A stretch of DNA of 64,000 nt, taken from assembly GCA_010093995.1 (NCBI GenBank), contig ML992501.1, forward strand, positions 1,855,583 through 1,919,582. The letters run 5' to 3'. Under the pieces are notes generated by a model. That model saw only the letters and a list, made by a program, of their open reading frames with translations. It did not search any database and had not been told where the DNA came from. The DNA is from Elsinoe ampelina (Eukaryota). Positions 43,369 through 61,628 of this stretch are shown in pieces; the stretch's first letter is position 1; each line of letters begins with the position of its first letter. Position numbers and translations under genes: made by a program.

Positions 43369-43649
43369 TCTGTGTGGCTATGGAATGGAAGAAAGCTCGT
43401 GGGATTGTGGGTGTGAGATGCGCATGGGTGGTGTTGGTGGGACGGTTGGAGCGGAGGAAATTTTGGAGAGGGAACTTTTTTTGCGGAGAAGTTCCGCGGA
43501 AGTGCTGGGAGCTTGGACCATGTGTTTGGATAGGACGACGATGGCAGTGCGGGTACAAGCATGTGAGACGGAAGATGTGGAATGTGAAATTGATCATTAT
43601 ATGCGACCATGGTATCGTGAAATAAACAACGCCCTATACGCTATATGCA

Positions 43650-46600
43650 TCAGATGAACCCTTCCCCTCCACTGATCAGGCTCATTCTGCTCCTCGCACC
43701 TGTCCCTCGACTCCCACCTTCGTCTACATCCATGACACCGCTCCTCCGTCTGACGACTCGCTTGCTATGCTTGCTCGTCGCTACCAACACCTGAGCAGGG
43801 CAAATCACTGCTTCGTCGCCACCTTCACCACTATCGTCTCCCTTCTTCATGACGAGGGGAAAGAGTACAATCTTCACTACTGATCCGGTGCTCTGCAGCT
43901 CTTCGTTGCTGACATATTCACCACTGCGCTCGTTCATCGTCTCAGCGTCGAATTTTGTCTTTCGGACCAAGTCTCCGTTGCTATCGTACTCCGGCGTTGG
44001 CGGTGGAAGCATGAAATAGTCCGCTCTTTGCGTCCGCATCTCGATGCTGAGATCAATGGCGAGTCGGAGAACCTTCTTCAGGCTTGCTTGAAGCTGTCCT
44101 TCCGCAGATTTTGGCGGTGGTAAGAGTGCTGCGAGTGTAGCGTATATCTCCTGCGTGACCGCCTCGTGATCGAGGTTCTTCTGGGTGGAGAATGCTGGTC
44201 GGCGTGCCAGTAGCGTAAGTGTTGTTGCGCGCCACTGCGCCACTGCTCGGGGTGGTCCAACTTCCAGTAAGATCTTCTCTAGTGCTTTGAGCTTCTGCCG
44301 CTGCTCTCTGTCCATACCAAAGAGATAGCGGGTGAAGACATACTCCCAGACCATCATCATGACAAGCGCCATGAAGACGTCGCGCCGCCGCACCCGATCC
44401 ACGAGAAGTGTATCGACATCGCTTCCATCGAGCATTGTATTGTCTAGTCTTGTCTCCAGCTTGTCATCCTTCAGATCGCTTGATAGGCGACAGGCTCTGT
44501 TGTCAGACGATTTGGAGAAGCGCAAGACCCATGCCTGGACATGCTGGCAGAGTTTCTGACAGGCTCCATCAAAGTAATCTTCATCGCGTACAGTGAGGTA
44601 GTCGTCAGTAGCAGTAGCTTGAATCCGTGCTTGCAATGCCCGAATCTCAGAAGTGGCGTAGTCCAGTTCTGCTCTTAGCCGAGCGATCTCAGTATCCTTG
44701 TCTTCCAGTGCAGTATCGATATGTTGTCGGACGATTGACTCCATGCCATTCGATAGTTGGGAGTGCTCATGGCGGAGCTTTTCGAGCTCGCGGATTGATT
44801 GTTGCCACTGCGCATTGGCATAAGAGTGCTCTTCTTGAAGTGTGCCATATCGATCATTTGTGTCGGCAATCAAATTCTTGTTCGCTTCAGTCAATGTCGC
44901 ATTGAGATCCTTTAGCTGCTCCAATTCTTGCTTGAGCGGTTCAAGCATGGCCTTGATTTGGTTGATCTCGGCGTCCTTTTCTCGCAACCTCATCTCACTG
45001 TTGGCGACTGACTGTCGCGTCGCATTCTCGTCGCCATCAATATCCATATCATTTCTTGCATCCTGCAGTCGTCGATTCTCCGAGACCAATGCTTCGACCC
45101 GTGCTTCCATGTCAGCAATGTACATGCTTTGCTTGCGCCGGACACTTTGAGGTCGAGTCGGCGATGTGGCCATTGGCTCGCCATCGCCGTACCCTTCATA
45201 AATGTCCGACATGGCGCGAGTCCTAGTATTCAAGCCCCGCTCGTCATCATTCAACGGCGGGGTTGGCGGTGCGCGGAAAGGTGGGATGGAATTGTTTGTT
45301 TGGGCAGCAGTGGATCCAAGGTTCAAAGCGTCACCCCGCCGAGCTGCCGTCCGAAGATCACCCGACGCCGACCGGTCCGTGCGTCGCAGAGATGGTGTCG
45401 CGCTCTCATTGCTGATAATGCTTGCTGTGATGCTGGGAGCACGAACCGGGTCGGGACTTTTCAATCGCTGTAGGCTGCTTGCTGAAGTGTTGCTGATGCC
45501 AGTGGGCGATCGAAGTGCCTCCAGTCTCGTCTGACTCGTCGAAGGTTGCGACCCCTTTACATCTCGAAGTGACAGTTCAGGTGGGATCTGGGAGCTGGAG
45601 TCTATACGATCGCGGAATGATTGTTTGGGCGTGTCAGTCCGTCGCGTTGTTTTTATTGCGTGGTCAGGAAGTCCAACATCGGAAGCTGATTTGCCGCGCT
45701 TGCGCTCTGCCGATTCCGTGGGTATGTAGTCCAGGGGTATAACGGGAGAAGCCGACCGATTTTGTACGTCCTTTTTGGCTCGGCTGTTCGTTGACTCGGT
45801 CGATTGCTGCCCATTCGATGGAGGCGTCGCGAAGAGGTAAGAAGTCCGGTTCTTGGTCGTTGACTCCACTGGGGATGGTCCTCTGCTTCCTGTCGCCAAC
45901 TTCTCCTCAACAACATCCTGAGAACGTGTCTTCTTCACCGGCATCTCCCATTGCTCCCAACTTGCCACAGACTCCTTGTCAGCATTGAGATCACTCGCGC
46001 CGGTCTCCATGATTGTCTCTGGGACACCGTACTTCTCACCAGAGTTGCGATTTGATCGATCAGTGATGGTATCGTAGCCACTGTCTCTGATCGTCTCTCG
46101 TGGCTTATCATCTTCCGGCAGGAAAAGCGACTCTGGTACGCCGCTGTCTCGGCTCTTGTCCAGAACATCGAAAGACCATCCGGGTGTATTGACGATTCCG
46201 GCAGGGCTTGGATCACGAGGTTTATCCAATTCACGTGATTGTTCTGTTGTTGCCAACGAGCCTTCCCGACCTCTTGGGAGCTTACTGACAGTCGTAGGTA
46301 GACTCTGCGAGATCTCGGAAGTGTGCATCATGCCGACACTTGAAGTTGACGCTGGCGCTGCGTCGATGGCAGCAATGGTGGTCTCTGATGGCTCTTCTTC
46401 CGTTGGCGTCTCGGCATTCCAGTCAAATGCAGATCCTCGCTTCTTCTTTTTGGATTTCTTGCTCGGGAGATCTGGCAGTGGGGTCTCGACGACTGGTTGC
46501 TTGACAGGCTCGGGAATAGCTTCGATCTCTAAAGCGCTTCCTCGTTTCCCTTTGCCCTTTCCCTTCTTACCCTTTTTGATAGGCAGTGCCCATTCATCGT

Positions 46601-49600
46601 TCTCGGGAGCCTGCTCAGCGCTTGGTACGTCCAGAATCTCCCTGGGAGCAAGACCTGTCGTGTCAAGGGGCAGCTCCTCATGCTCCACAGCGGCAGGTTG
46701 AAGCTCACCCGCTGGCATCTCCCCCGTGAGCTCGATAGCACGCCGAGCGTTCTGATCATTCGAGTCATCCTCTTCAGTGTCGACGATCTTCTTGCCTTTG
46801 CGTTTCTTCTTGTTCGATTTCGTGAATATGGACTCTTCCGGCCCCTCAGCCTTCGATAGCTCTTCCTGGGATCTGCTGAGCATCGCTGCAGTGAAGCCAG
46901 CCGCTCCGAGACCTGCAGTCAATGCAGCAGTGAAATCATCATCCCCTTGCCCGTAAGTCGATGGCTTGTCGTGAGAATCTGGCAACTCCTTTGAAAGCGT
47001 ACCCTCATCTAGAAGAGACTGCTCAGTCTTTTCCTCAGATGGCGTATCCGTGGTCGATCTGCGATTCTTCTTCCCTTTCCGGCCTTTCTTGTTGACGATA
47101 GCAAAGGCTTCTTCAGGATCCACCTCTGCTACAGTACCTGGCGGCGATGATCGGCGGTGGAAGACTGGGTCCTCCACAACCATGTTAGAGTCGAAGCCGG
47201 ATTGTGCAAGACCAGCTGCGAGAGTGGCTGCAAAGTCTATATCGTTGGATGGCGGGCTAACAGCTCTTGCGAATGACGATTGTGTTCCTCTCGCGCGATC
47301 ATCGGACTCCCGCAGAACCGTGGTCTGTGACAAGTTGGCCCGCAGTCCTTCTTCCGCAGTCTTCTCAGCTACCGGTGTAGGCGGATCATCCTCGACATCG
47401 AAACCCTTTGCCTTCTTGGATTTGCGTTTTTCCTTTTTCGAGATCTTGCGAGTGATTGGAAATTCGGACTGGTCGATGTGAGTAGTGTCTTGCGCTCGAG
47501 ATGCGTCCTCAGTGTCGACCGTTGTTAACTTTTCCGCCACAGGCATGGCTGTCGGGACTCCCTCGTCATCCTGCTCAGCTGCTTCAACCTCGTCCGCCCA
47601 GTCAAATTTACTGAGTGGCCGAGAAAGGCGGAATTGATCTGGGACGCTTGATCGTGGTCCTGATCGGGCTTCGGCCAGTTCGGACGTTCCCTTTTCGCCG
47701 CCAATGGTCTGTGCTATAGACTCTTCTGAGGCTGGGTTGGACGCGACGACTGTGTCAGGCACCACGTCCGATTGCTCATCTTCGGCGAGGTCAAGAGTCT
47801 TTCGCTTCTGCTTGGCTTTCTTCCGATCTTTCTTGGAAAGTTTGAGACTAAAGGGAGAGAATTCCTCGTTGTCTGGTTCCCGATCCACGAGTTCTACTGG
47901 CTTTGCTTGTGCAGTGCTGCTGTCCTGTTCCGTGGAAACGAGGTTCTTCTCGTGGTTGTCGATTGGTGTCTCAGCAGGTACAGCGACAGAAGAGATCCCA
48001 CGTTCTGGTGATTCTCTTCGTGACAAAAGTGGCTGACGCTCATCCTCGAGCAGCTCGGAAGGCGCTCTTGTCAAGGGCATTCGGTCTACCCCCATGAAGC
48101 ACTCGTTGCCTTCGGAGGAGACGTGGGATGATTGCTGCCTGTGCGGTTCCGACTCTGTGTCGCGAGGCGGACTGTCCTTGAAACGCGAAATACCAACTTC
48201 CTCGACTGGTGATTCGGTCGTAATGACAGCATCTGATTGCTTTGCTGGTGTCGCTGGGATGTCAATTGGGTCCGTGATTGCTGCTGATCGATCGACAGTA
48301 TTTAGCCCGATGAGAGGTTCAGAGGACAACACTGCTTCAGAGATAGCATCCTTCGTTTCCCTGACTACGACAACATCTTCTGACTTGGACGGATCAACTT
48401 GAGTAGACAAGTCTGGCTGCCGATCCGCTAACGCCAATTTCTGACCAGCTTCCTCAAGATCAGCGGGCAGAGGAACTTCCCTTGAAAGAGGCGTTCCAAT
48501 AGCTGATGCGCGTTTCGACTTCTTCCCTTTCTTCTTCTTAGACATACGAGCCCACATCTCATCCGGCGTCTCCATGTTCGAATCGAGGAGTGGGTCAATA
48601 TCCCAATCCCCGAGCGGAGTTGGTATGGCGGATGTCTGTGCGCTGGTAATGGCAAGATTGTCGGTCTGGATGGGTGACAGGTCGCGAAGGTCTTCGGGCA
48701 TCTTCATTGTCTCGAGAGGGACGTCTGGTGAAGGCTGTGCAGGCTCGGAGATCGTGGATTCACGACGGTCGGATGTAGCTGGGAGGTCTCGCAAGTCAGA
48801 TGGCATGACCATGCGTTCCAGAGGACGATCATCCGGTGCTGGACTCGGCACTTGCGACTGCACTTCGGATTTGGGCAGCCCGTCTCCGTCGCGGTTCACT
48901 TGTTCTTTGATCTCGTCGGGTGCAGCGCCGTTGTGTTCCGTCTTGATTTCCTCGGCCTTGTCATCACTCCGCAGAGCAAGAGCACCCGCAGCTGTGGCGA
49001 GAACAGCAGCCGCAGCGGCAGCCTTCCGACCCTTCTTCTTGCTCTTCGAGGTGGTCGGCGCCCAATCGTCCTCTTCAGGTTGATCGCTGGTAGGATGCTG
49101 GACAGGAGCTGTAACCTCAAAGTCGTCTGCCCGCTCAGTGACAGGGGGAGTCATCTGAGCGAAGTCGACGCCCGAAGCTCGTTTGCCTTTTTTGCCCTTC
49201 TTGCCTTTCTTAACGACGTATGAGCTCCATTCGTCTTCTGGTGTGGCTTGAACTGACTGTATTGGTGCCGAGTCGTTGATGGCTGGCGTGTCTGCGGGCT
49301 CGACTGCTTTTGATGGGCCCATACTGTCAGCAGTAGTGTCGATAGTCGGAACGCCTCGTTCAATATCCTTGCTAGTGGATGTGGCCAGTTGTTGCTCGGT
49401 CGCCGATCCGGTGGAGGCTGCATACTGGTCGGCAGTACCCCTGAGAGATTGCTCAGCAGGAGGATCAAAGCCAGATTGATGAGGGACCGGATCGAGCTCG
49501 TCGCTGATGGCCCGCTTGGAATTCTTCCCTTTACGTGCTTTCTTTGTTGTGAATTCGTCATTCCAAGAAGTTTCGATATGCGCAGTGGAAATTGGTTCTG

Positions 49601-52600
49601 TGGCAGGTTCATCGACGCGAGACTCCGTGTTGGCGAACTCGTCCACAGCCGGCTGGCTGCCCTCAGCGACTCCCATGGTTTCGCCATGGCTTGTTGCTGT
49701 AGCCATATCCACCTTAGCAGGTTGCGAGATGACCTCGTTTGTAGTCGGAGCCTGCTCGTCTGCCTCAGCACGTTTCCCCTTCTTGCCCTTACGCTTCTTG
49801 AGAGGAGTGAAGCCCCAACCATCATCTGCGATGGTCTCATTGATTGTCGTGTTAGGCTCCTCTTGTTGGAGAATCGGTTCCGACGTCGACTCAATGGCTT
49901 GGATCTGCCCTACTGGATCAGCTGGAACAGGTGCGAGATTTCCAGACTCGTTATCAAGCGGCATCGCGGCATCAGCGATGGGCGCCGGTGCTGCCTCAAA
50001 CTCAATTGCTTCTGCCCGCTTCCCTTTCTTGCCTTTCCGCTTCTTGACTGGAAAGTCCCAAGCATCATCTGCTGCGGTCTCGGCTGGTGGCTGTGACCGT
50101 TGCAATTCGATGTCGGCCTGTTTGTCTATGGCGATGACTTCCGTTGTTGGCAGGACCTCCACGTCTCTTGAAGATTGCTCTAGGCTCGGGAGTGGTGCAT
50201 TGTCGTTGGGGACCGGGACCTCCTGTCCTTCCAGTGTCGTTTCTTCCGCCGGAGTCTCAGACAATGCCTTTCCCTTGCCACGCTTCTTGTCCTTTCTAGA
50301 CTTCTTGGTGACGAAGACTTCCGAAGGGGGTTCAACCGGATTCTCAACATTCTTGACTTCTGTGTTACTGACATCGGGATCATCAGCATGGGCTGAGGTA
50401 GTTTCAGTGACGGCGGGCATCTGACTAACGGTCTCCAGCTCCTCCACATCGCCACGCATCCGGCTGCTCTCATCCCTGATCAGATCAACTTCACCCCACA
50501 GATTGGAGAAATCCCTTGGCTTCGCAGGCAGAGACGAAACAGGTTGGTCAGGGGTGGCTTCGATCGATGGCACTGGGTCCGGATGCGGGTTTTGCGCCTG
50601 AACGTCTTCAGTGGAAGTATGCTCAGGCAGAGGAGCATCGGGATCCGGTCGAGTGAATCGATCCGACTCATCCCTCACCAGATCTTCGGGGCCCCATAGC
50701 GGCTCGCTGGAAGCAGTCTTCGTTTCGCTCGACTGTTGGACGGTTGTGTCGGAATCTTGGTTCTTATCGTGCTGCTCAGTAGACTTTTCTGCGTCGCCAT
50801 CTAAGATTGTTCTGTCCCTGGATTTGCTCGACGAGGAACGCTTGTCTGATTTGTCGCTGCTGCGTTTCGATTTGCCAGCAATACCAGGTAGGACCCACGA
50901 GAGCACTGTCGAGGTAGCTGACTTTCGTTTCTCATCCTTGCTTTTGGATCGCTTGTCTTTGTTCCCACGCTCAGTTGACTTGCTCCGCGTATCGATGGGT
51001 GACGACGAATCATCGATCTTCTCGGCCTCGATGCCGTCCTTAGTCGTAGGTTGCTGTTCGGAGACGGTATCGTCTTGCTGTACAACCATACGGCTGTCCG
51101 GCAATATCTGGTCTTGCGTACCGACTGATGAGGATTCTTCGGGATGCACAGAACCGTCGGATTTGCCGTTTTTGTGATTTCCAGTACCGAGAGCTGCGAC
51201 CGTAGCACCTACGCCCGCAACAGCACCAGCCATTAGGCCCCAATAGTCTGTAGATCTGATCGCGTCCTGTTGTGATGTCTGCACCATTTCCGAGGTAGCT
51301 ACTTTGTCGTCCAAAGGGTCGGTGAGGGACTCAGCGGATTCTCTGAATTGCGGTGGTGTGGCGTCTTCAGTCCCTGCGGGTGTTACTTCGCCATTGCCGT
51401 CTTCATCCTCGAACGCCCAGGGATCAGATCTTCGAGCCTTCTTCAACTTCTTCCGCTCGGCTTTGGAGAGTTGCTTTGTATCTATTTCAATGGACTCGGT
51501 CTGTGCTGGCATTGTACCTTGCACGACATCTGTAGCGTCGTCGAAGCTCCTGACAGGTTCCACTGGCTCGCCAGTTGCTACCGATTCTGTTGGCTCTTGC
51601 AAAGGCTCATCGTTCCAAAGATCCACCTTCTTGCCTTTCTTGAGCTTTTTCAGCTCCTTCTTGGACAGTGGTTTAGCCCATTCGTCGGTCTCACTTGCTT
51701 GGTTCTGCGTAGCAGGAGAGTCAGAAGGCGGCTCGTGCGAAACGATCGTGGTTGGAGGCTCCTTTTGGAAAGGAGTGGCCTGCGTATCGAGTTCAGCTTC
51801 TTCCACTGCGATCGCAGCTGGGTTATCCTCAACAGCCACTTGCTTGCCCTTTTTCAGCTTCTTCAGCTCTTTCTTGGATAGCGGTTTCGACCATGGCTCA
51901 ATTTCCTGTTCCAGGTCGGGATCTGCAGGTGCCTCTTTTCCTACAGTGGGGTCTGCATCTGCCAGGACAATTTCGCGAGGCGCGTCGGTATCCACCTCTC
52001 GAGTACCAGCGACGTCGACGATTTGCTTGCCCTCGGCGTCGACGGACGGTGATGGCTCCTCGCTCCACAAGTCGACTTTCTTGCCTTTCTTCAGCTTCTT
52101 TAGTTCCTTCTTCGAGAGTGGTTTTGACCGCTCGTCAGCTTCAGGTTCCTGCTCAACGATAGTGCGAGAAGGGTCCGCAGTAGTTTGATTAGTGACGTCC
52201 ACAGTGTCGGCAAGCGCCTCGTTCTCGACAGTAGTAGCAGTATTTGCGTCATCGTCAGGCTGCTTGCTGTCGCTGACAATGTTCGTGGTCGGCTCTTCAA
52301 TGGCAGTGTTCACCGGCTCATCACTCCATGGGTCTACTTGCTTCCCCTTCTTCAGCTTCTTGAGTTCTTTCTTCGAAAGTGGCTTACTCCAAGGCTCCGG
52401 TTCGGTCCCATTCGGTGGCTCGTCTGCGAGCTCCAAGGGTTGCGCTCTATCCTGAGTGGTCCCGGCATAAACACCAAGGTTATCGTCTGCTTCTGAGTAT
52501 TCGGTCGGTTGAGTGGCATTGGCATTGATTGCCAATGGTTCTTCTCTACCCGGAGATAGAGCCGTCGGCGATTTAGCAGATAGATCCACCTGCTTTCCTT

Positions 52601-55600
52601 TCTTGAGCTTCTTCAGCTCCTTTTTGGAAAGAGACTTGCTCCCGGCTTCTGGTACTGCGGTGTCGACTGGGGCGTCGGGCTGCATATGGCTGGAGATATC
52701 CTCAGACTGGAGTTGTGGAGTTTCGAGGTTGGTTCTCGTCTCGGCCGAGTCATCCGGGAGGTCTGTTTGCTGTAAAGAAGCCGAATTGTCAAGCGTGCTT
52801 CTACCAGTCAGTTGTCTGTCCTCCGCGGCAGGAGATGGCTCCTCTGCCCAGATGTCAACTTTCTTGCCCTTCTTCAGCTTTTTCAGCTCTTTCTTTGATA
52901 ACGGCTTCGACCATTCTTCGATCTCAGTAGGGTCTTGTGGACGCACGGGCGGATCAGCCTGCGGTTGCTGGACATCTGGGATGGCAGCGGCGTCAGATTC
53001 GCCGATGGTCTGGAGGGCAGAGGCGTCAACAGCATCAATCTTTTCGATATCGAGCTTGGCGAGAGGATGATGTGACCCAGCAAGTGGGTCGCTCTGTCTC
53101 TCTTCATTAGGTGTTGAGGCTTGAGTCGACGGCTCTTCGGTCCACAAGTCGATCTTCTTGCCCTTCTTCAACTTCTTGAGCTCTTTCTTGGAAAGTGCTC
53201 GCGCTTCTGGCTGGACAGAGGACTCTGCAGGGGGCGGCTCAACTTCGGTCTGTTGTTCGACGTGCTCGGACACGAAACGGGACGGGGCAGATGTCTCGAT
53301 AGGTTCAGCGTCGGTCGACGTAGCATGTGACATGAATGCTTCACTTTGGTCCTGTGGGACTGGCTCGGTTGTTGCTGGCACAACGTCGTTCCAGATGTCA
53401 AATTGAACGCCCTTCCCCTTCTTTCCTTTCTTCTTCTTGTCAGACTTCAAGGGAGTAGATGCCCGTTCAACCTCAGTAGGTTTGGTCGTTCCCGCGGATC
53501 TCTCCACGGCGGTCACGGGCGTCGTGATGATCGATGGTTGCTCCTCAAAAGACGTTTGCTGCAGCTGCTGCATCTGCTCATCAATTCTAAACGTCTCCGA
53601 CTGTTTCGATTCGTGAGTCTCAAGAGCGGGCAGACTTGTCGTGGGGTCATCTTCCTTCGAAATTCCAAGTTCAGTAAGACCTGACGGTGGTTGATCTCGA
53701 GTCGTAGATGGAACATCAGCAGGTACCACGATCGCTTCCTCCGACTTTAATTCGACAATGTCACGCTTGCTCTTACTGCCTTTTCGTTCTCGCTTTGCTC
53801 GCCACTCCTTGCCTGGACTCTCACTCTCGCCGAAAAGACCATCGACAGCATCCCGAGTATCTTGCTCGTTCCTCTCCTTAATCTCTTCCGCAGTCTCGCG
53901 ATCGACTTCACCGCTTGTCACGACAGCAGTGCCGAGCTTGAGAGGCTTGCCTTTCTTCTTGCTGCCCTTACGGGCAGGTTTGAGGACGAATGCAGGCTCC
54001 GGCTGTTCGCTGGGTGTGGCAAAGGAGGGGCTGGGCTCCTCCAGTGGCGTGGCGAACACGGAATGTGATCCTGGGGAGATCGGTGTGGGCTCAGCAAGGC
54101 TAGAGGTGGTTGGAGGCATGTCAGACCCGTCGCTGATAGGCTCGCGCGAATGAGAGCTAACGTCGGTCTCGGTCAGAGCGTCGGCAGCGAGTGCAGCTCC
54201 GGGCCCAAGTGCTACAGTGCTAGCAATGGTGCCAAAGTCCAAGCCTGTAGAGACGGTAGGTGCACTGTCAGGTTGCGGGACTTGGTCGACCGCATCTCTG
54301 GCTGCGCGTTCTTCCCTCTCCTTCTCCTCCCTAAGCATATCTTCCCAGCTGTAAAACTCGGGTTCACGCTTGGGCTTTTTGCTGAACACATCGGAAGGAA
54401 AGGCGCTCGCTCGAGGAGTACTCTGATTGGAGCTTAGCACGTCCTCGAAACGCATCTGCGACTCGATTGAACGCTCTATAGGCAAGTCGAAGTTCTTGAA
54501 TTCATCCTCGGCAGACATGGCTGGCAGTGGTGTTTCTACGGCGTCTTCGAAGAGCTGCTCCTCAACAGCACTCTCATATCCGTCGCTACCTCTAAGGCTC
54601 GATGCGCGGCTCGTCTCCCGACTGATCGGAAGAGGTGGTAGCGGCTCGTCCTCAAGGACTATTTCACTGGGCTTACGATTGTGCTCGACGAGATACAAAG
54701 GTTGAAACTCTCGTCTGATCTCAATAGATCGGGGCCTCGAAGCTCTGGTCCGAGGTGTAATGAGAGAAGCAGGGGAATCTGGTGAAGCAGGTACTTGACT
54801 CGAGAAGCTCTCTGCTCGTTGCCGTGAAGCGTTTGGCGTGGACGTCGTGCTCACCGATGGTGAAGGTGGCGGCCGGCGAAAGCGGAATGGTACAGCTGTA
54901 GCGGACGCTGGGCGAAGTGGCAAAGCTGCGGGACGCCGAGGAGTCTCTGTAACCGGTGACTGAAGGGATAGAGACTCTGGCGACATGACACTGCCTCCGA
55001 GGCTTTCTTCATGATACATGGTCGCGGTACCAAGATCAGCTGACCTGTCGGAATTTATGGCCGTCTCTGGAGCTCGAGACAGCTGGGTTGATGGTTCGGC
55101 GGGTAGAGATTGAAGCTCCTCAACCTCTACCCGCTTGGCTAAAAAAGACTGATCCTGGTATTTATCCTCTCCGGTCAATGTGCTGCTCCGGTCACGGTTT
55201 CGCAGATCCTCTTTGGACGAAGTTGATCGACGAGATAATTGATCAGGTGGGCTCTCTGCTTCGCGGTCTCGTCGACGTTCGCGCTTCGACTCGGATGGTA
55301 TATCACCATAGTCTGCAGTGCTCCGCCGCGAGATGCCAGAGGCAACACTGCGTGTGTCATCGTCGTCTCCTGTCCCGCGACGGCGATGATGTTTCTTGTC
55401 TTTCTTGTCGTCGCGATCATCTGGCTCATCTTGATTGGCGTCTTCCGACTTGCGACGGAACATTCCGAACAGGCCGCCCTTCTTGTCCTTCTTCGACGAG
55501 CTCTCATCTTTATCACGCTTTGACTTGCTCGAACGCTCAGAGTAGCCTGAAACCATGGACATGTTGTCATCAAAGTCGCCACTACGTCTTGACTTTTTCT

Positions 55601-58600
55601 TACGGGCTCTCCGCTCCTCTTCTGTCTCGGTTCGTTGAGGCTCGTCAAAGGATCCCGGAATGCCATAATTGAACTGCTCTCGCTCGGTGTTGCCATTCCT
55701 GTCCGCAGAGGCGGCCTCATACGGTGGTGAGCGTGATAGAGTGTCTCGTCGCTGGCGGGACTTCTCGTCAATAGGACTCCTATCGTCGAATCGATCCTCA
55801 TCTCGTTTGTCTGAGCGAGATTTCAGTGCATCGTTGGCGACGAAACCGGCAGCCCCGCCGGCTAGCAGCGCTGTAGCGATGTCACCGAAGCTCTGCTTGT
55901 CCTTTCTGCGGTCGCCAGCTTCGGACTGAGTGTCGCGATCAATTTGGTCCTCTCGACGTTTGCTGCCAGGCTCTGACGCGGCATATGTATCTCGAGTTGT
56001 AGAAGTGTCCCGAGAAGATTTGTCGTCGGCCAGACTCTTGCGGCGTTCCTTCTCGAGCTTCTTCTTGTCCTTTTTCGAGAGTGGGGCTGCCCAGGCTGTG
56101 TCTAGCTCTTCCTCCTTGGACGCAATGCCATTCGTTGAAAGGACAGGCTCGGATATATCATCGGTATTTTGTCGAGCAAGCTTGTCTCGCTTTTTCAGCT
56201 CCTTCTTGCTCAACGGTACTTGCCACTCGTCAGCTGTGGGAGCTTCTTCCACAGGAGTCTCGACCGGCGTAGGGAAGTCTTCTGTGTTTTGTCTAGCAAG
56301 CTTGTCTCGTTTCTTCTGTTCCTTCTTGCTCAACGGAATCTGCCACTCGTCGGCTGCAGAGGTTTCCTCGACCGGGGTCTCGACTGGAGTAGAGAAGTCG
56401 TCCGTGTTCTGTCGAGCAAGCTTGTCACGTTTCTTTTGCTCCTTCTTGCTCAAGGGAACTTGCCACTCATCCTGGACGGAAACCTCCTTGACTGGCGTTT
56501 CGACCGGCGTCGAAAACTCGTCGGTGTTCTGTCGTGCCAATTTGTCCCTTTTCTTCTGCTCCTTTTTACTTAGAGGGACAGACCACTCATCATTTGCAGC
56601 GTCGTGGAATGCGGTTGACTCTGACTGCTCCTTGACAGGGATCTCAATTGGATTGGCAAAGTCATCCGTAGCTTGCCGTGCCAATTTCTCTCGCTTCTTC
56701 TGTTCCTTGCGTGACAGGGTCGGAGTCCATGTGTCTTCTTGCTCAGCAATGGCTTCAATGACAGGCTGAATCATAGGGTCAGAAGCTGGCTCAGGAATCG
56801 TCTGCAAAGGCGTCACAGAAGCGCTCGCGAAATCGTCCGTATCCTCCCTGACGAGCTTGTCTCGACGTTTCCTGTCCTTTTTCGAAAGAGGTGCTTCGAA
56901 AAATTGCTCCTCGTTGTCTTTCGTAGGAGGTGTTTGGACTGCCATGAATGGCTCCAGAGCTTCAGCGACTATGTCATCAGTATCGCGACGAGGTAGCTTG
57001 TCTCGCTTGCGTTGCTCCTTCTTAGTGAGCGGCTTCTCCCAACTTTCCTTGTCGCCAGCGGCCTGGGCGACAGGCTCCTCGATGACGGATGAAGCACGCT
57101 CGGACATGTCTGGCTCAGAGGCAAAATCTACAATCTCACGCGTGCCAGTCTTGCCCTTCCGCTTCTTGTCCTTTTTGCTAAGGCCAGTGTCCCATGTTTC
57201 AGATCTTGTGTCGAGATCTCGATCCTCTTTCTCAAGATTGCGAGGTGGCAGCGAAGACCATGACTGAGCAAGAGGCCCGTCTTCGATGACCTTATCCTTG
57301 ACCTCGCGAACACGAGATGTATCCCGGCTAGGAGGCTTCGTTTCTCGTGATATTGTTGGTGGTGGCCCATCTTCGAAAGCACCTGGAATATAGGACCTCC
57401 TCTCAGCCACGGGCGTTGGCTCGTCCACCTCGCCTTCAATAAAGCCTCGAACAGGCGGTGCTCCCTCAGTACCAGGAGAGTCTAATGACATTCCAAGATC
57501 GGACACGGTCTCGAAGAAGGGTGACTGGTAGATACCAGGTCGTTCGAAAGATGATCTCGGCTCTTCGCGAACGACTTCGATTGTCTCAGGCTCTCCAGTA
57601 AATCTGTCAGCGGCGAATGGAGCCGCGGCGGATGGGAGATCGCTGAATTTGTAGCTCGTGCTGGGCTCGCCACGTTCATCGCTCTTGACTTCGATGACCG
57701 GATCTGAGGGATACGCCCCAGCAGGTGGTAAACGCGGACTGTGCGCAGGGGACTCGATCTCATAGAAGCGAGTATCATCTGGACCCCAGCTGACTCGATT
57801 GGCCACTTTCTCGTCCCTTGTCTTCTCGGCGGACTGATTGGGGATTTCACGTTCCGTCACGACGTGTGGAGAGACCGGCGATTTGTCGCCCTTGGCAGAG
57901 CCTGCCATGCTCACAGGGGGTGTAGGCACAATCAATCCCAGATGAGGCACACCGTCCTTGCGGATTAGCACCTGAGTCTTAGGATCGAAACGCTTAAAGT
58001 CGCCTGCATGCATAGTGTAGTGGATGTCAGCATCGGCATTGGGTACCCATTCCTTCAGCTTCTTCTGCCGTTCCTCCTCTTCGGAGAGGACAGGTTTCTT
58101 TTCGAGTTCTTTAGGCGCAAAGAACTCAGCTTGCGTGGGCTGTGGCGAGGTGTACTTCTCTTTCAGATCTGCAACGACGCGCGCCGCAGTATCTCTGGCA
58201 GCATCAGAATATTCTACACGAGATCGTCCGCGCTTTTGATCTTCGGGAGTGTCCGGAGAATAGGCATCGTCTTCGGTATCGCGACGACTCGGCTTGAATG
58301 TCTGAGTGTAGTATCCTGTAGCAGGGTCGTAACTCGAGTGCGTTTGTTCTGCCAAATCGTTATGACCAGGGTATGGAGGCGGAGGCGTCGAGCGTGCTCC
58401 TCCTTCTCGTGCTTGTCGCTCGGCCAGCTCCTTCTTCTTGGCTGCTATGAGCGCCTCCAGCTCTCGCTCGCGGTCCGACAAAGCATTTACAGGCTGCTGA
58501 GGAGGCTGTGAAACTTGCGGGTTGGTAATTGGAGGAGGAGACGGTAGAGCACCGCTCATGCTGTATTGTGCTTCGTGCTCGGCTCTATCAGCGATAGCTT

Positions 58601-61600
58601 GTCGTTCATTCTCACGTGCTCGGTCGTAAGCTTTGCGCTCGGCATCTTCTCGTTTCGTGCGTGTGCGCTCGCTCTCTTGGACACGTTCTCTCTCTCGTTC
58701 TGCCTCGTGGTTCTCATCGCGATTGTCATTACGTCTTTCTCTTCGTGAATCTTTTCGAGACTGTCGGTCATCTTCGAAACGGACGCTCGAGTCGTCTTTC
58801 CTGCCACGTGTCGCAGCATAGATTCCAGCGGCTGCAGCGGCAGCGCCACCCAGCACCGCAGCGTCACCCATGGAAATGCCAGGAGATGGATCTGTCTGGG
58901 ATCTACGGGGCGCAGGCAGTTCGGGCCGGTTCCCATCCTTCCTGCGTTCTGACGTAGAAGAAGAATAGTCGCTTCTGCCATCTCTAGACTGGCCAGACCA
59001 GCCGCGTTCTGGTCGCGTCTCGTATCTAGGCTGAGCAGAGACTGCCGATGATGAGTCTGTGAACGGCATAGGTTCAACATGCTGCATGGGGCGCATGGCT
59101 GTTGACGAGACCACCGAGGCGACATCTGCGAGCCTTACAGGCGTGGGCTGCGCTGGTGAGGGGTAAGACTGTATTCTTGACGATTGTGGAGATTCTCTCA
59201 TGGGTAGCGATGGCGTAGGTTCAATGGTGTATGTTGGTCGCTGCTTAGGCTTCTCTCGCTTTTGAGATGAGCTGCCCCATCGCCATCCCCATTTCCCTGT
59301 ACCCGAAGAGTCCGAACTCAGAGATTCTCGACTCGATCTTCGGGCAGGTCTCTTGCCTTTGTCGTAGTGCAAATCTCCGAATGCGAGACCTGAGGTCGCG
59401 CTTGAAGCGTCAGATTCAGAAACTGACTCCCAGCCATCCTCGTCAGCCGAGCTTGGACGCCCAAGAACACTTCCACGATCGCGGTGCCCGTGAGCACTGG
59501 GCTTCTCCTTCACAGCAATCACTTCTGGTCGCCGTCTACTTTGTGCCGCCGCGAGAGCTGCCGCAGTAGCCCCGATCCCTAGCAGCGTAGAGTCGAGATG
59601 ATCTCTCGAGTTGCGTCGGGAACGTCTCCTAGGGCTCGATTTGCGGCGGCTGATCGAACCTCCGAACGCCAATCCTGAATCCGAGGAAGAAGATGAGCCA
59701 TTGCCAAAGTTGAAGAAGCCCTTTTGCTTCCTCTTCTTTTTGCCAGAAATCGATTTCCGTTTGGACTTTGGGGCTGTGACTCCAAGCATCTCTCCAATGC
59801 CAGGGCTGTGGCTTCGTGATCGGGAGCGCGATCGTCTGCGGATGGACACCCCATTTGGATGGGCTTCATGAGCACGTGAGGGGCCGGCATATGTAACATA
59901 TCTTTCCTTCGATCGCGACCGCGACGACCTGATGGGTTCAGGGTGTCTTACGGTCAAAGCATCTGGATTTTGCGGATACACATAGTCATTACGACCATGC
60001 GGTCGCACCACACCTCGCGAGATATCTGATCCTCTTGACTGGTAGCTCGGTGGTCGGTCCGATCGTCCAGACTTAGCACTGTAATCGTCGTTGAGCTCAT
60101 GCTTCTGGTTCCAGAGTGCCCCGCCGACTTTAGCAATGCCGTACCCGGCCAGACCAGCACCAAGCCAGCCAGCCTTACTTTTCCGCTTGCCGCCATTTTC
60201 AGACGAAGACGAAGAGTGGTATCTTGCATCCTTGTCGACACCACTATGCTTCCCTTTGCGTCTAGCAGACTGTCGTAAAGATTCGTTCGATCGGCGTCTC
60301 TTGAACGAGTCGCTGGAACGCCGACGATGGAAGTGATGTGGTCTGGGTGCATCTCGCGCCGAAGACTTGGGATCGAAGCAATATTTGCAAACCCCAATAT
60401 ACTCAGTATATTCTTCCATTCTGCGGACATCCTCCTTGTTCTGGACTAGGTCGAACAATCGGTCAAGAGGACCTCGATGCGTATGTCTATGCTTGTGCTC
60501 TATCGCCTGTCCTACCATTGAGGGCGGGCGATAGGTGAATTGATCTTCCTGCGGATGGTTGACAGGGAGGGTTGATGATCCTGAAGTATGATGCGCAGCA
60601 TAGGCACCGGCCGCCAGTCCTGCCGCTCCGGCAGCCGCTACAGTGGGCAATGAGCTTCCATTTGCTTGAACGGGCTGTGGAGGTTGCGCAGGAACGTAGT
60701 AAGCTCCCCCAAAACCGCCATTATTCTGGGGAATATTGCTCCCGTGCTGTGCCCATGTCCCATTTGCTGTGCCCGATGCAGTATAGAAAGATGCTGCATC
60801 ACTCGCCCCAACTCCTGAACCTGGCTGACCAGGTGCGTATGCAGAAGTTGAAGGTCCATGTTCTGGTCTGGAAGGTCTCGAAGAGCTGGATTGTTTTGGG
60901 GGTTTAGATAGGCTTCCACTTGCTCCATAGAAGTCTGCAGCTGATCCATTGCCAGTGTCCTGTGCAGGAGTTGGGATCGAAGATGCTGGTTGTAAATGCG
61001 GTGGATGGTGCATCTTGATATCGGGAGAAGGTGGCCTGACACCTGGTTGCATGCTCACCGACTGGCCCTGGTCACCGTAGAAGTCTGCAGCGAGCCCATA
61101 GCCTCCCTCAGAAGTAGTCTTTCCTGCCCGCTCAAAAGCGTTATGCGAATAGTCCGCCGGAAATTGACCTGGAAATTGATTCTGTACATTGGACGATAGT
61201 TGAGGTATAGCAGATTGAGACATGCCATACGGCTGATCGTGTTGTCCAGGGAATTGACTGAAGCCTGTCGCGCGCATACCACTGGCAAAGTCCTCTGCGC
61301 CTCTGGTCCTCTCAGTTCGTGCAGCGCGAGAGGGGCCCTCGGTCGACTCGACTCGTTTCTCTTTTCGCTTGTCGCTGTCGCGTCTGTCTCCCTCCCTCCT
61401 CTTGCGGTCTTTTGACCTGCTTCGAGACCGACTCTTTTTGCCTCCCTTCTTTTCCGAGCGCGAGGAGACTCTGCTCCTGATTTCACTCTTGCCATCCAGA
61501 TCCTCCCATTCTTCCTCGTTTGCGACACTCCGGATGGCGCTCTCTGTAAGCGAAGGTGTTCGACTGGACTTGTCCGACTTCTTGTTGCTCTTGGAGGAAG

Positions 61601-61628
61601 AGCTATTGCTCCGACGAAGTCCAAACAT
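43650..61628 (-). CDS. LAH: Woronin body tether leashin (LAH; often annotated involucrin-repeat protein), single 5992-aa ORF
   Basis: Size, acidic disordered middle with W..KKxKK lysine clusters, N-terminal MEEYTEYIGVCKYCFDP motif, C-terminal coiled coil plus DEDYFDGACQKLCQHVQAWVLRFSK and hydrophobic DVFMALVMMMVWEYVF. Confidence 0.82.
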   Translation of the reverse strand: MFGLRRSNSSSSKSNKKSDKSSRTPSLTESAIRSVANEEEWEDLDGKSEIRSRVSSRSEKKGGKKSRSRSRSKDRKRREGDRRDSDKRKEKRVESTEGPSRAARTERTRGAEDFASGMRATGFSQFPGQHDQPYGMSQSAIPQLSSNVQNQFPGQFPADYSHNAFERAGKTTSEGGYGLAADFYGDQGQSVSMQPGVRPPSPDIKMHHPPHLQPASSIPTPAQDTGNGSAADFYGASGSLSKPPKQSSSSRPSRPEHGPSTSAYAPGQPGSGVGASDAASFYTASGTANGTWAQHGSNIPQNNGGFGGAYYVPAQPPQPVQANGSSLPTVAAAGAAGLAAGAYAAHHTSGSSTLPVNHPQEDQFTYRPPSMVGQAIEHKHRHTHRGPLDRLFDLVQNKEDVRRMEEYTEYIGVCKYCFDPKSSARDAPRPHHFHRRRSSDSFKRRRSNESLRQSARRKGKHSGVDKDARYHSSSSSENGGKRKSKAGWLGAGLAGYGIAKVGGALWNQKHELNDDYSAKSGRSDRPPSYQSRGSDISRGVVRPHGRNDYVYPQNPDALTVRHPEPIRSSRSRSKERYVTYAGPSRAHEAHPNGVSIRRRSRSRSRSHSPGIGEMLGVTAPKSKRKSISGKKKRKQKGFFNFGNGSSSSSDSGLAFGGSISRRKSSPRRRSRRNSRDHLDSTLLGIGATAAALAAAQSRRRPEVIAVKEKPSAHGHRDRGSVLGRPSSADEDGWESVSESDASSATSGLAFGDLHYDKGKRPARRSSRESLSSDSSGTGKWGWRWGSSSQKREKPKQRPTYTIEPTPSLPMRESPQSSRIQSYPSPAQPTPVRLADVASVVSSTAMRPMQHVEPMPFTDSSSAVSAQPRYETRPERGWSGQSRDGRSDYSSSTSERRKDGNRPELPAPRRSQTDPSPGISMGDAAVLGGAAAAAAGIYAATRGRKDDSSVRFEDDRQSRKDSRRERRNDNRDENHEAERERERVQESERTRTKREDAERKAYDRARENERQAIADRAEHEAQYSMSGALPSPPPITNPQVSQPPQQPVNALSDRERELEALIAAKKKELAERQAREGGARSTPPPPYPGHNDLAEQTHSSYDPATGYYTQTFKPSRRDTEDDAYSPDTPEDQKRGRSRVEYSDAARDTAARVVADLKEKYTSPQPTQAEFFAPKELEKKPVLSEEEERQKKLKEWVPNADADIHYTMHAGDFKRFDPKTQVLIRKDGVPHLGLIVPTPPVSMAGSAKGDKSPVSPHVVTEREIPNQSAEKTRDEKVANRVSWGPDDTRFYEIESPAHSPRLPPAGAYPSDPVIEVKSDERGEPSTSYKFSDLPSAAAPFAADRFTGEPETIEVVREEPRSSFERPGIYQSPFFETVSDLGMSLDSPGTEGAPPVRGFIEGEVDEPTPVAERRSYIPGAFEDGPPPTISRETKPPSRDTSRVREVKDKVIEDGPLAQSWSSLPPRNLEKEDRDLDTRSETWDTGLSKKDKKRKGKTGTREIVDFASEPDMSERASSVIEEPVAQAAGDKESWEKPLTKKEQRKRDKLPRRDTDDIVAEALEPFMAVQTPPTKDNEEQFFEAPLSKKDRKRRDKLVREDTDDFASASVTPLQTIPEPASDPMIQPVIEAIAEQEDTWTPTLSRKEQKKREKLARQATDDFANPIEIPVKEQSESTAFHDAANDEWSVPLSKKEQKKRDKLARQNTDEFSTPVETPVKEVSVQDEWQVPLSKKEQKKRDKLARQNTDDFSTPVETPVEETSAADEWQIPLSKKEQKKRDKLARQNTEDFPTPVETPVEEAPTADEWQVPLSKKELKKRDKLARQNTDDISEPVLSTNGIASKEEELDTAWAAPLSKKDKKKLEKERRKSLADDKSSRDTSTTRDTYAASEPGSKRREDQIDRDTQSEAGDRRKDKQSFGDIATALLAGGAAGFVANDALKSRSDKRDEDRFDDRSPIDEKSRQRRDTLSRSPPYEAASADRNGNTEREQFNYGIPGSFDEPQRTETEEERRARKKKSRRSGDFDDNMSMVSGYSERSSKSKRDKDESSSKKDKKGGLFGMFRRKSEDANQDEPDDRDDKKDKKHHRRRGTGDDDDTRSVASGISRRSTADYGDIPSESKRERRRDREAESPPDQLSRRSTSSKEDLRNRDRSSTLTGEDKYQDQSFLAKRVEVEELQSLPAEPSTQLSRAPETAINSDRSADLGTATMYHEESLGGSVMSPESLSLQSPVTETPRRPAALPLRPASATAVPFRFRRPPPSPSVSTTSTPNASRQRAESFSSQVPASPDSPASLITPRTRASRPRSIEIRREFQPLYLVEHNRKPSEIVLEDEPLPPLPISRETSRASSLRGSDGYESAVEEQLFEDAVETPLPAMSAEDEFKNFDLPIERSIESQMRFEDVLSSNQSTPRASAFPSDVFSKKPKREPEFYSWEDMLREEKEREERAARDAVDQVPQPDSAPTVSTGLDFGTIASTVALGPGAALAADALTETDVSSHSREPISDGSDMPPTTSSLAEPTPISPGSHSVFATPLEEPSPSFATPSEQPEPAFVLKPARKGSKKKGKPLKLGTAVVTSGEVDRETAEEIKERNEQDTRDAVDGLFGESESPGKEWRAKRERKGSKSKRDIVELKSEEAIVVPADVPSTTRDQPPSGLTELGISKEDDPTTSLPALETHESKQSETFRIDEQMQQLQQTSFEEQPSIITTPVTAVERSAGTTKPTEVERASTPLKSDKKKKGKKGKGVQFDIWNDVVPATTEPVPQDQSEAFMSHATSTDAEPIETSAPSRFVSEHVEQQTEVEPPPAESSVQPEARALSKKELKKLKKGKKIDLWTEEPSTQASTPNEERQSDPLAGSHHPLAKLDIEKIDAVDASALQTIGESDAAAIPDVQQPQADPPVRPQDPTEIEEWSKPLSKKELKKLKKGKKVDIWAEEPSPAAEDRQLTGRSTLDNSASLQQTDLPDDSAETRTNLETPQLQSEDISSHMQPDAPVDTAVPEAGSKSLSKKELKKLKKGKQVDLSAKSPTALSPGREEPLAINANATQPTEYSEADDNLGVYAGTTQDRAQPLELADEPPNGTEPEPWSKPLSKKELKKLKKGKQVDPWSDEPVNTAIEEPTTNIVSDSKQPDDDANTATTVENEALADTVDVTNQTTADPSRTIVEQEPEADERSKPLSKKELKKLKKGKKVDLWSEEPSPSVDAEGKQIVDVAGTREVDTDAPREIVLADADPTVGKEAPADPDLEQEIEPWSKPLSKKELKKLKKGKQVAVEDNPAAIAVEEAELDTQATPFQKEPPTTIVSHEPPSDSPATQNQASETDEWAKPLSKKELKKLKKGKKVDLWNDEPLQEPTESVATGEPVEPVRSFDDATDVVQGTMPAQTESIEIDTKQLSKAERKKLKKARRSDPWAFEDEDGNGEVTPAGTEDATPPQFRESAESLTDPLDDKVATSEMVQTSQQDAIRSTDYWGLMAGAVAGVGATVAALGTGNHKNGKSDGSVHPEESSSVGTQDQILPDSRMVVQQDDTVSEQQPTTKDGIEAEKIDDSSSPIDTRSKSTERGNKDKRSKSKDEKRKSATSTVLSWVLPGIAGKSKRSSDKSDKRSSSSKSRDRTILDGDAEKSTEQHDKNQDSDTTVQQSSETKTASSEPLWGPEDLVRDESDRFTRPDPDAPLPEHTSTEDVQAQNPHPDPVPSIEATPDQPVSSLPAKPRDFSNLWGEVDLIRDESSRMRGDVEELETVSQMPAVTETTSAHADDPDVSNTEVKNVENPVEPPSEVFVTKKSRKDKKRGKGKALSETPAEETTLEGQEVPVPNDNAPLPSLEQSSRDVEVLPTTEVIAIDKQADIELQRSQPPAETAADDAWDFPVKKRKGKKGKRAEAIEFEAAPAPIADAAMPLDNESGNLAPVPADPVGQIQAIESTSEPILQQEEPNTTINETIADDGWGFTPLKKRKGKKGKRAEADEQAPTTNEVISQPAKVDMATATSHGETMGVAEGSQPAVDEFANTESRVDEPATEPISTAHIETSWNDEFTTKKARKGKNSKRAISDELDPVPHQSGFDPPAEQSLRGTADQYAASTGSATEQQLATSTSKDIERGVPTIDTTADSMGPSKAVEPADTPAINDSAPIQSVQATPEDEWSSYVVKKGKKGKKGKRASGVDFAQMTPPVTERADDFEVTAPVQHPTSDQPEEDDWAPTTSKSKKKGRKAAAAAAVLATAAGALALRSDDKAEEIKTEHNGAAPDEIKEQVNRDGDGLPKSEVQSQVPSPAPDDRPLERMVMPSDLRDLPATSDRRESTISEPAQPSPDVPLETMKMPEDLRDLSPIQTDNLAITSAQTSAIPTPLGDWDIDPLLDSNMETPDEMWARMSKKKKGKKSKRASAIGTPLSREVPLPADLEEAGQKLALADRQPDLSTQVDPSKSEDVVVVRETKDAISEAVLSSEPLIGLNTVDRSAAITDPIDIPATPAKQSDAVITTESPVEEVGISRFKDSPPRDTESEPHRQQSSHVSSEGNECFMGVDRMPLTRAPSELLEDERQPLLSRRESPERGISSVAVPAETPIDNHEKNLVSTEQDSSTAQAKPVELVDREPDNEEFSPFSLKLSKKDRKKAKQKRKTLDLAEDEQSDVVPDTVVASNPASEESIAQTIGGEKGTSELAEARSGPRSSVPDQFRLSRPLSKFDWADEVEAAEQDDEGVPTAMPVAEKLTTVDTEDASRAQDTTHIDQSEFPITRKISKKEKRKSKKAKGFDVEDDPPTPVAEKTAEEGLRANLSQTTVLRESDDRARGTQSSFARAVSPPSNDIDFAATLAAGLAQSGFDSNMVVEDPVFHRRSSPPGTVAEVDPEEAFAIVNKKGRKGKKNRRSTTDTPSEEKTEQSLLDEGTLSKELPDSHDKPSTYGQGDDDFTAALTAGLGAAGFTAAMLSRSQEELSKAEGPEESIFTKSNKKKRKGKKIVDTEEDDSNDQNARRAIELTGEMPAGELQPAAVEHEELPLDTTGLAPREILDVPSAEQAPENDEWALPIKKGKKGKGKGKRGSALEIEAIPEPVKQPVVETPLPDLPSKKSKKKKRGSAFDWNAETPTEEEPSETTIAAIDAAPASTSSVGMMHTSEISQSLPTTVSKLPRGREGSLATTEQSRELDKPRDPSPAGIVNTPGWSFDVLDKSRDSGVPESLFLPEDDKPRETIRDSGYDTITDRSNRNSGEKYGVPETIMETGASDLNADKESVASWEQWEMPVKKTRSQDVVEEKLATGSRGPSPVESTTKNRTSYLFATPPSNGQQSTESTNSRAKKDVQNRSASPVIPLDYIPTESAERKRGKSASDVGLPDHAIKTTRRTDTPKQSFRDRIDSSSQIPPELSLRDVKGSQPSTSQTRLEALRSPTGISNTSASSLQRLKSPDPVRAPSITASIISNESATPSLRRTDRSASGDLRTAARRGDALNLGSTAAQTNNSIPPFRAPPTPPLNDDERGLNTRTRAMSDIYEGYGDGEPMATSPTRPQSVRRKQSMYIADMEARVEALVSENRRLQDARNDMDIDGDENATRQSVANSEMRLREKDAEINQIKAMLEPLKQELEQLKDLNATLTEANKNLIADTNDRYGTLQEEHSYANAQWQQSIRELEKLRHEHSQLSNGMESIVRQHIDTALEDKDTEIARLRAELDYATSEIRALQARIQATATDDYLTVRDEDYFDGACQKLCQHVQAWVLRFSKSSDNRACRLSSDLKDDKLETRLDNTMLDGSDVDTLLVDRVRRRDVFMALVMMMVWEYVFTRYLFGMDREQRQKLKALEKILLEVGPPRAVAQWRATTLTLLARRPAFSTQKNLDHEAVTQEIYATLAALLPPPKSAEGQLQASLKKVLRLAIDLSIEMRTQRADYFMLPPPTPEYDSNGDLVRKTKFDAETMNERSGEYVSNEELQSTGSVVKIVLFPLVMKKGDDSGEGGDEAVICPAQVLVATSKHSKRVVRRRSGVMDVDEGGSRGTGARSRMSLISGGEGFI
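51620..53200 (-). repeat. seven dispersed LSKKELKKLKKGK-type repeats in LAH
   Basis: Copies near 51650, 51870, 52100, 52370, 52610, 52890, 53180. Confidence 0.85.
55099..55146 (-). other. candidate -1 programmed ribosomal frameshift signal (U_UUU_UUA + 5-nt spacer + 15-bp stem-loop)
   Basis: Heptamer 55146-55140 in phase (UCU UUU UUA = S2161 F2162 L2163); spacer GCCAA; arms 55134-55120 and 55113-55099 pair at 15/15 positions (one G-U). Confidence 0.65.
56161..56710 (-). repeat. 120-bp (40-aa) tandem repeat in LAH: DEWQVPLSKKEQKKRDKLARQNTDDFSTPVETPVEE
   Basis: Four copies at exact 120-nt period (56181, 56301, 56421, 56541) plus degenerate flanking copies. Confidence 0.9.

Follow-up and report, generated by a model that had tools for sequence, protein, structure and literature searches.

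A conserved slippery heptamer and mRNA hairpin in the giant leashin/Lah-like gene of Elsinoe ampelina and other Pezizomycotina: a probable -1 ribosomal frameshift signal

Could a gene encoding a giant organelle tether yield two proteins from one mRNA, because some of the ribosomes slip backwards in the middle of the coding region? This question is raised by a locus in a 64,000-nucleotide (nt) stretch of the Elsinoe ampelina genome (GCA_010093995.1, contig ML992501.1, positions 1,855,583 to 1,919,582 of the forward strand), hereafter the window, where a leashin/Lah-like open reading frame (ORF) contains the heptamer U_UUU_UUA followed by a hairpin. An earlier note on this DNA had proposed that the two elements form a programmed -1 frameshift cassette. 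There are several other possibilities to be weighed: the cassette could be a conserved mRNA element that does not recode, a site of +1 slippage, a 3' splice acceptor, a site of slippage by the RNA polymerase, or a product of chance or of protein-level conservation. The elements considered are the following (window coordinates).

43650..61628, minus strand: gene of a leashin/Lah-like giant protein (Elsinoe-type), a single uninterrupted ORF of 5,992 codons.
55140..55146, minus strand: slippery heptamer U_UUU_UUA in the X_XXY_YYZ phase; the first T (55146) is a third codon position (offset 6482 from the start codon, phase 2).
55139..55149, minus strand: invariant 11-nt block G UCU UUU UUA G (E-site codon, heptamer and next base), identical in 8/8 aligned sequences from 7 lineages.
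55135..55139, minus strand: spacer GCCAA, 5 nt, as defined by the RNAfold structure.
55099..55134, minus strand: stem-loop (RNAfold) with the 5' arm at 55134-55119, the loop GAGC at 55118-55115 and the 3' arm at 55114-55099.
55133-55124 pairing with 55109-55100, minus strand: conserved core helix of 10 base pairs (bp), from RNAalifold and covariation.
55120..55122, minus strand: UGA stop in the -1 frame, 6 codons past the shift, which ends the trans-frame peptide SQAGRG.
55139..55141, minus strand: UAG in the +1 frame, made by the invariant UUA-G junction.

On the minus strand of the ORF the region reads CAG UCU UUU UUA GCC AAG CGG GUA GAG GUU GAG GAG CUU CAA UCU CUA CCC GCC, and this reading bore out the heptamer phase, the spacer, the peptide SQAGRG with its UGA, and all the coordinates given in the earlier note. 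The 15 pairs and 6-nt loop of that note are the same two hairpin arms: RNAfold yields 16 bp, including 2 G.U pairs, and the tetraloop GAGC (-27.3 kcal/mol, z = -5.4; -26.3 kcal/mol for the hairpin taken alone), and none of 200 dinucleotide shuffles folds as well. The Leu of the heptamer is residue 2163 of the 5,992-codon ORF, and the predicted products are those proposed earlier, a shifted one of 2,169 residues and a full-length one of 5,992.

The role of chance was first weighed within the window. The leashin ORF has 18 in-frame XXXYYYZ heptamers, and the 60 nt downstream fold below -22 kcal/mol at this one only; no contiguous stem on either strand of the 64-kb window is longer or more stable than that of the cassette. 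UUA makes up 3.7% of Leu codons across the two large ORFs of the window, and the probability that a Ser-Phe-Leu (SFL) motif is encoded as NNT TTT TTA equals 0.0038. When the 17 residues after the heptamer (AKRVEVEELQSLPAEPS) were synonymously re-encoded, 0 of 3000 variants folded as well (mean, -11.7; best, -25.9). A very large scan nevertheless meets such cassettes by chance, a single window cannot decide, and hence relatives were sought.

The metagenome scan was seeded with the peptide pattern PLY[LI]VE[RH]NR only, situated approximately 150 codons downstream of the site, from a seed alignment of 4 sequences; the cassette itself was not used. It returned 22 pattern matches, including 12 confirmed relatives (L001-L012). 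In 10 of these 12 loci (3.8-7.4 kb of DNA each) there is exactly one TTTTTTA, and every time it is at the xSFL site; in L001 the upstream DNA is too short to reach the site. Three pairs are duplicates (L002=L003, L004=L005, L006=L007), and L010 and L011 are 96% identical, so that seven lineages are counted, six among the loci plus the window, represented by 8 aligned sequences. The lineages are distant, with protein identity of 33-47% over the next 350 residues (62-64% for L009/L012). No relative was found in the genome-contig and viral-contig scans. The pattern foreseen for orthologs before the comparison, that is, an invariant heptamer, a compensatory hairpin 5-9 nt downstream and a near -1 stop, was present in 10 of the 11 loci with enough upstream DNA.

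Should only the peptide be conserved, its codons would be expected to drift, as they do elsewhere in these genes. All seven lineages have TCT TTT TTA at the site, where TTA accounts for 0-10% of Leu codons in these genes (0/86 among the other Leu codons of L009), and the probability of this triplet of codons given SFL, by each gene's own usage, is 0.000-0.011 per lineage. The non-slippery synonymous codons that would have spoken against the earlier proposal were thus seen in none of the seven, L008 being a locus without the cassette. Within 350 residues from the site, 38 amino-acid columns are invariant over the 7 lineages. The single-codon columns are S, F and L of the heptamer (TCT, TTT, TTA) and P of the stem (CCC), and the R column of the stem is CGG or AGG. 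The remaining 33 columns, including the PLYLVE.NRK block, all use 2-5 codons each. Thus, synonymous sites are saturated between the lineages, and the constraint does not extend outside the cassette.

The invariance extends slightly beyond the heptamer. The codon before UCU varies (CAG, CGG, CCG, UCG, GUG), its last base always being G, and the codon after the heptamer varies as well (GCC, GGG, GGA, GGC, GGU, GAA), with G always as the first base. These invariant bases outside the heptamer (the upstream G and the whole UCU on one side, the G on the other) suggest an extended signal that would comprise the E-site codon and the 3' context.

In all 8 sequences a hairpin of -19.5 to -26.3 kcal/mol starts 5-7 nt past the heptamer, and the common 10-bp helix was predicted independently by RNAalifold. 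In the core helix (alignment A3), 98.8% of the 80 cells pair, as compared with 39-58% after the 3' partner had been shifted by 1-3 columns. Both sides have changed in 3 of the 10 pairs (U-A/C-G, A-U/G-C, A-U/U-A; 10 cells), and in a control that ignores the relatedness of the sequences 0 of 500 shuffles matched the observed covariation score, the number of paired cells, or the number of cells changed on both sides. For example, the 5'-arm replacements GUA GAG to GCA GUG, which alter V-E to A-V, are met by the synonymous 3'-arm change CCU CUA to CCA CUG. Five sequences have a G.U pair where the opposite strand would have a C-A mismatch; thus, the structure belongs to the mRNA strand. The sole Rfam match of the element was to mir-197, by chance (20.8 bits versus the gathering score of 74).

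The -1 frame is closed in all 7 lineages, after 6, 12, 12, 16, 2, 1 and 14 codons, with no relationship among the trans-frame peptides; the +1 frame is closed by UAG within 2 codons of the site in all 8 sequences. The site hence combines an in-phase heptamer, a stable structure at approximately 5-9 nt, synonymous constraint with compensation, and a defined -1 outcome, which are the marks of a -1 frameshift signal. We conclude that purifying selection acts on the slip-prone heptamer, the canonical spacer and the mRNA hairpin to a degree that the protein does not require. Most probably, leashin/Lah has in this cassette a programmed -1 frameshift signal comparable to that of HIV-1 gag-pol, kept across deeply divergent Pezizomycotina and leading to early termination.

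A number of observations weigh against this conclusion. The ribosomal shift itself and its product are deduced from the sequences. With 7 lineages, the near -1 stops are only modestly unusual: taking 3/64 per codon, we estimate the P that all fall within 16 codons at approximately 0.01. A pure -1 model does not need the +1 UAG, to which the invariant G after UUA likewise gives rise. The shuffle control described above is blind to relatedness, and 94 of 500 shuffles matched a cruder measure, the number of pairs that had changed on both sides. In L008 the upstream DNA is present and contains neither a T6 run nor SFL; the place probably homologous to the site (L008:1700-1800) reads DQ-DVV-GQRG, with a weak 5-bp stem. 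Judging by this locus, at least one lineage can do without the cassette, and the L008 lineage may have lost it. The residues [QE]SFL.xR are conserved too, so part of the constraint is, or looks, protein-level, and homologs of the SFL[AV]ERP[ED] form (P0011, P0013, P0016) would be unable to encode the same stem.

At the protein level, the peptide DQSFLAKR[VA]EVEEL[QR]SL[PS]AE stands out in 4/4 Elsinoaceae homologs as an identical segment, variable on either side. The V-to-A, Q-to-R and P-to-S replacements of Elsinoe and Sphaceloma, compared as proteins only, would be compatible with the stem. An exhaustive representative protein search with residues 2000-2400 as the query retrieved 9 proteins, and [QE]SFL[AGV]x[RG].. 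recurs in P0007, P0009, P0011 and P0013, which reach far enough upstream, and likewise in P0016, P0017 and P0018. From these alignments SFL is an old motif, and proteins are silent on codons.

The best surviving alternative is a conserved mRNA element, consisting of the U-tract and the hairpin, that does not recode: it could be a site for an RNA-binding protein, a signal of mRNA localisation, or a programmed ribosome pause during which the giant nascent chain is targeted co-translationally, any shifting being an insignificant by-product. Strictly, conservation and covariation prove a selected RNA structure and U-tract, not a shift, and since the heptamer phase is fixed by the conserved surrounding protein, the phase adds only a factor of approximately 3. 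However, such an element would need neither the most slip-prone eukaryotic heptamer, nor the rare UUA, nor the canonical distance of 5-7 nt. Moreover, a slippery run before a roadblock is costly and should be purged by synonymous changes, yet it is invariant in 7/7 lineages, and the -1 stops are near in all of them. We therefore regard a non-recoding element as improbable.

If, instead, the ribosome slipped forward, tRNA-Phe would re-pair from UUU to the overlapping +1 UUU while UUA waits for its tRNA, UAG would enter the A site, and termination would be immediate; a +1 slip at a hungry codon of this kind is likened to the Ty1 mechanism. UUA is indeed rare, and its junction with G makes the +1 UAG in 8/8 sequences though the next amino acid varies (A, G, E). 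On the other hand, a stem-loop at 5-7 nt is the classical stimulator of -1 shifting, the X_XXY_YYZ arrangement permits tandem -1 re-pairing, and the G may equally be a context effect on the -1 shift. We consider the +1 variant a distinctly weaker candidate than the non-recoding element; early termination would result either way.

Splicing was the refuting possibility named in the earlier note, according to which UUUUUUAG might serve as a 3' splice acceptor. In its developed form, UCUUUUUUAG would be an alternative acceptor under the control of the hairpin. It is a pyrimidine run with a terminal AG, and in four lineages there are upstream introns whose donor could pair with it, the use of which would remove 3n+1 nt each time. 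The introns are at a similar place and in the same phase.

L006:2250-2294: upstream intron.
L009:2570-2655: upstream intron.
L010/L011:3368-3438: upstream intron.
L012:2601-2670: upstream intron.

These are, however, canonical introns of 45-86 nt with a YAG of their own, 46-109 nt upstream of the UUUUUUAG AG. In the window, L002 and L004 the ORF continues without a stop across the region for more than 1,100 codons; in L011, too, the zero frame is open there. No 5'-splice-site-like site is present within 400 nt upstream in the window, and in L002 and L004 such sites are only weak and agree neither in distance nor in phase. Nucleotide conservation starts at G-UCU and extends downstream, with no conserved branch point, and the peptide immediately upstream is in frame and homologous across lineages. 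Finally, an identical 17,082-nt contig of run X3, which may be RNA or DNA, crosses the site unspliced. Thus, with own-YAG introns in four lineages and, in the three others (the window included), an uninterrupted ORF without a credible 5' splice site within 400 nt, UUUUUUAG is not a general splice acceptor, and the refutation is not supported. Its regulated use as an alternative acceptor appears very improbable.

Several observations accompany this comparison. The upstream intron is not found in the window, L002 and L004. The putative intron of L010 has an in-frame TGA where L011 has CGA. The X3 contig spans window positions 43614-60695, beginning within the leashin ORF and ending 36 nt beyond its stop codon. 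Four of eight runs were compared with 54300-56100; besides the X3 contig, there were two short identical pieces off the site from X5 and no match from X6 or X8.

Slippage of RNA polymerase II on the T6 run, to which we give as little credit as to the splice acceptor, would agree with a conserved homopolymer and with stops in both alternative frames, but six residues are short for it, the downstream hairpin is not yet made at transcription and would be left unexplained, and there are no indels in the single X3 contig over the site, which is a weak argument. Chance, or purely protein-level conservation of an SFL..R..PLP motif, has a practically negligible probability: [QE]SFL is conserved in proteins and the scanning of very many windows meets chance cassettes, but S, F, L and P have single codons against 2-5 at 33/33 other invariant columns, the changes are compensatory, and replacements are tolerated only where pairing survives. 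Accordingly, we rejected the splice acceptor, the polymerase slippage, and the chance or protein-only explanation, each on the evidence listed for it.

What the -1 shift would mean depends on the host gene. Lah is described, in the available portions of PMC2690989 and PMC5345055, as a giant protein of Pezizomycotina of more than 5,000 amino acids (aa), with complex N- and C-terminal regions and an acidic, repetitive, poorly conserved middle (PMC2690989), and with a membrane-spanning segment in the final approximately 288 residues preceded by a coiled coil (PMC5345055). The same portions state that its N-terminus binds Woronin bodies (WSC) and its C-terminus binds the septal pore (PMC2690989, PMC5345055). 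The 5,992-aa window protein has the giant size and the acidic repetitive middle: it carries KK-rich repeat arrays, and D+E make up 16-19%. A hydropathy scan, the only method applied here, places a hydrophobic segment at residues 5751-5769, 242 residues before the C-terminus, a position that would agree with the description in PMC5345055. The closest proteins are those of Elsinoe fawcettii, E. australis and Sphaceloma murrayae, annotated as 'Involucrin repeat protein'; the Elsinoe/Sphaceloma homologs have 5,672-6,240 aa and 65-80% identity to the window protein across residues 2000-2400. The window gene thus fits leashin/Lah by its size, architecture and the names of its homologs, the assignment being made on these and not by comparison with a named Lah sequence.

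Some further features of the gene and its surroundings may be listed. The lysine-rich repeats form two arrays, at residues ~1560-1800 and ~2900-3400 (PLSKKEQKKRDKLARQNTDDF-like and PLSKKELKKLKKGKKVD-like), and eight Ala/Gly-rich hydrophobic segments are scattered over the protein. Immediately downstream of the leashin ORF, on the same (minus) strand, there is a second very large ORF of 2,599 codons (35569-43368). The second-strongest stem of the window is at 60499-60535 on the plus strand (15 bp with 3 G.U, -24.9 kcal/mol), antisense to the leashin ORF near its 5' end; its G.U pairs would become mismatches on the mRNA strand.

With the -1 frameshift as the preferred explanation, the following sequence of events can be proposed. 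While its P site holds tRNA-Phe on UUU and its A site tRNA-Leu on the rare UUA, the ribosome would meet a G+C-rich hairpin of 10-16 bp, the base of which is 5-7 nt downstream, and a fraction of ribosomes would slip back by one base. Termination would follow once these had translated 1-16 codons that are not conserved (SQAGRG in the window), so that two proteins would come from one mRNA: the tether at its full length of 5,992 aa and an N-terminal form cut short at 2,169 aa. The latter would keep the N-terminal region, which in Lah is the end binding Woronin bodies, but have neither the linker and the coiled coil nor the membrane/septum anchor at the C-terminus. Going by other signals made of UUUUUUA and a stem-loop, our guess is that the efficiency of the shift would be a few per cent.

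For the purpose of such a shift two variants are put forward, with a sizeable share of the probability left to other purposes. The production of a functional anchor-less isoform has, in our estimate, slightly less than an even chance; that premature termination and nonsense-mediated decay (NMD) would serve to control the mRNA or protein output seems unlikely, though worth keeping in mind. A wider and rather doubtful suggestion, offered tentatively, is that the cassette would be an ancient fixed-rate switch predating the split of several major Pezizomycotina lineages, by which the ribosome would produce the septum-anchored tether along with an anchor-less form binding Woronin bodies and so set the proportion of tethered versus free or apical organelles; the Neurospora lah-1/lah-2 arrangement might then be its transcriptional re-invention.

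If the -1 shift does operate, there should be a so far unrecognised leashin isoform of approximately 2,170 residues, or else the gene would limit its own output by a built-in device. This is relevant to the partition of Woronin bodies between tethering at septa and other pools, and to the interpretation of experiments with N-terminal Lah tags or with truncations near the site; a functional element would be lost on recoding Lah synonymously or optimising its codons. The candidate rests on unbiased comparative evidence and is directly testable by a reporter.

To our knowledge, there are very few eukaryotic cellular genes of non-transposon origin with a well-supported, phylogenetically conserved -1 frameshift, and several claims have been disputed. 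In line with the earlier note, no report of frameshifting in leashin/Lah was found in the literature searched, with most subscription journals outside its coverage. The paper that joins 'Woronin' and 'frameshifting' (PMC5640933) describes an RNA motif of hexA, not leashin.

Among the known systems, the closest in its signal is HIV-1 gag-pol. It has the identical heptamer followed by G, and in both a simple G+C-rich stem-loop, not a pseudoknot, is the likely stimulator. On the other side, leashin is a cellular fungal gene, its stem is longer (10-16 bp) and starts 5-7 nt past the heptamer, and the stop would be reached within 1-16 codons, as opposed to the long pol ORF of HIV-1. In yeast cellular mRNAs, -1 frameshift signals leading to NMD have been proposed, mostly without synonymous-site conservation, and are debated. 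They share with leashin the shift to an early stop in a cellular mRNA, whereas the leashin cassette is deeply conserved and shows covariation.

In its outcome, the cassette rather resembles the tau/gamma system of E. coli dnaX, which differs in being bacterial, in its heptamer A_AAA_AAG and in its efficiency of 50%. The dnaX gene also has an upstream Shine-Dalgarno-like stimulator, for which the leashin cassette has no counterpart. According to the available part of PMC5009743, where U_UUU_UUA is given as the HIV shift site, the -1 shift in dnaX leads to termination one codon later and to a shorter subunit; as would be the case in leashin, the shift is within a long ORF, the stop is near-immediate, and a full-length protein and a C-terminally truncated one without the later domains come from one mRNA.

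The same part of PMC5009743 mentions a -1 frameshift conserved in Pezizomycotina in the gene of the Rab-GDI displacement factor. As described there, this gene, PaYIP3 (PMC3777964), is similar to leashin in being a cellular gene with a Pezizomycotina-wide -1 shift, a U-rich heptamer (U_UUU_UCC) and a downstream structure. It differs in that the shift extends the protein into a longer ORF, with a pseudoknot 2 nt downstream and a +1 shift in some species, whereas the leashin shift would truncate. Finally, Neurospora lah-1/lah-2, in the accessible portion of PMC2690989, provide the closest parallel in the product, an N-terminal Woronin-body-binding leashin protein without the C-terminus that binds the septal pore. 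There, it is achieved by separate transcription units and alternative splicing, with a new cortex-binding end, approximately 17 kb into the locus, whereas the leashin cassette would act in translation, at codon 2163.

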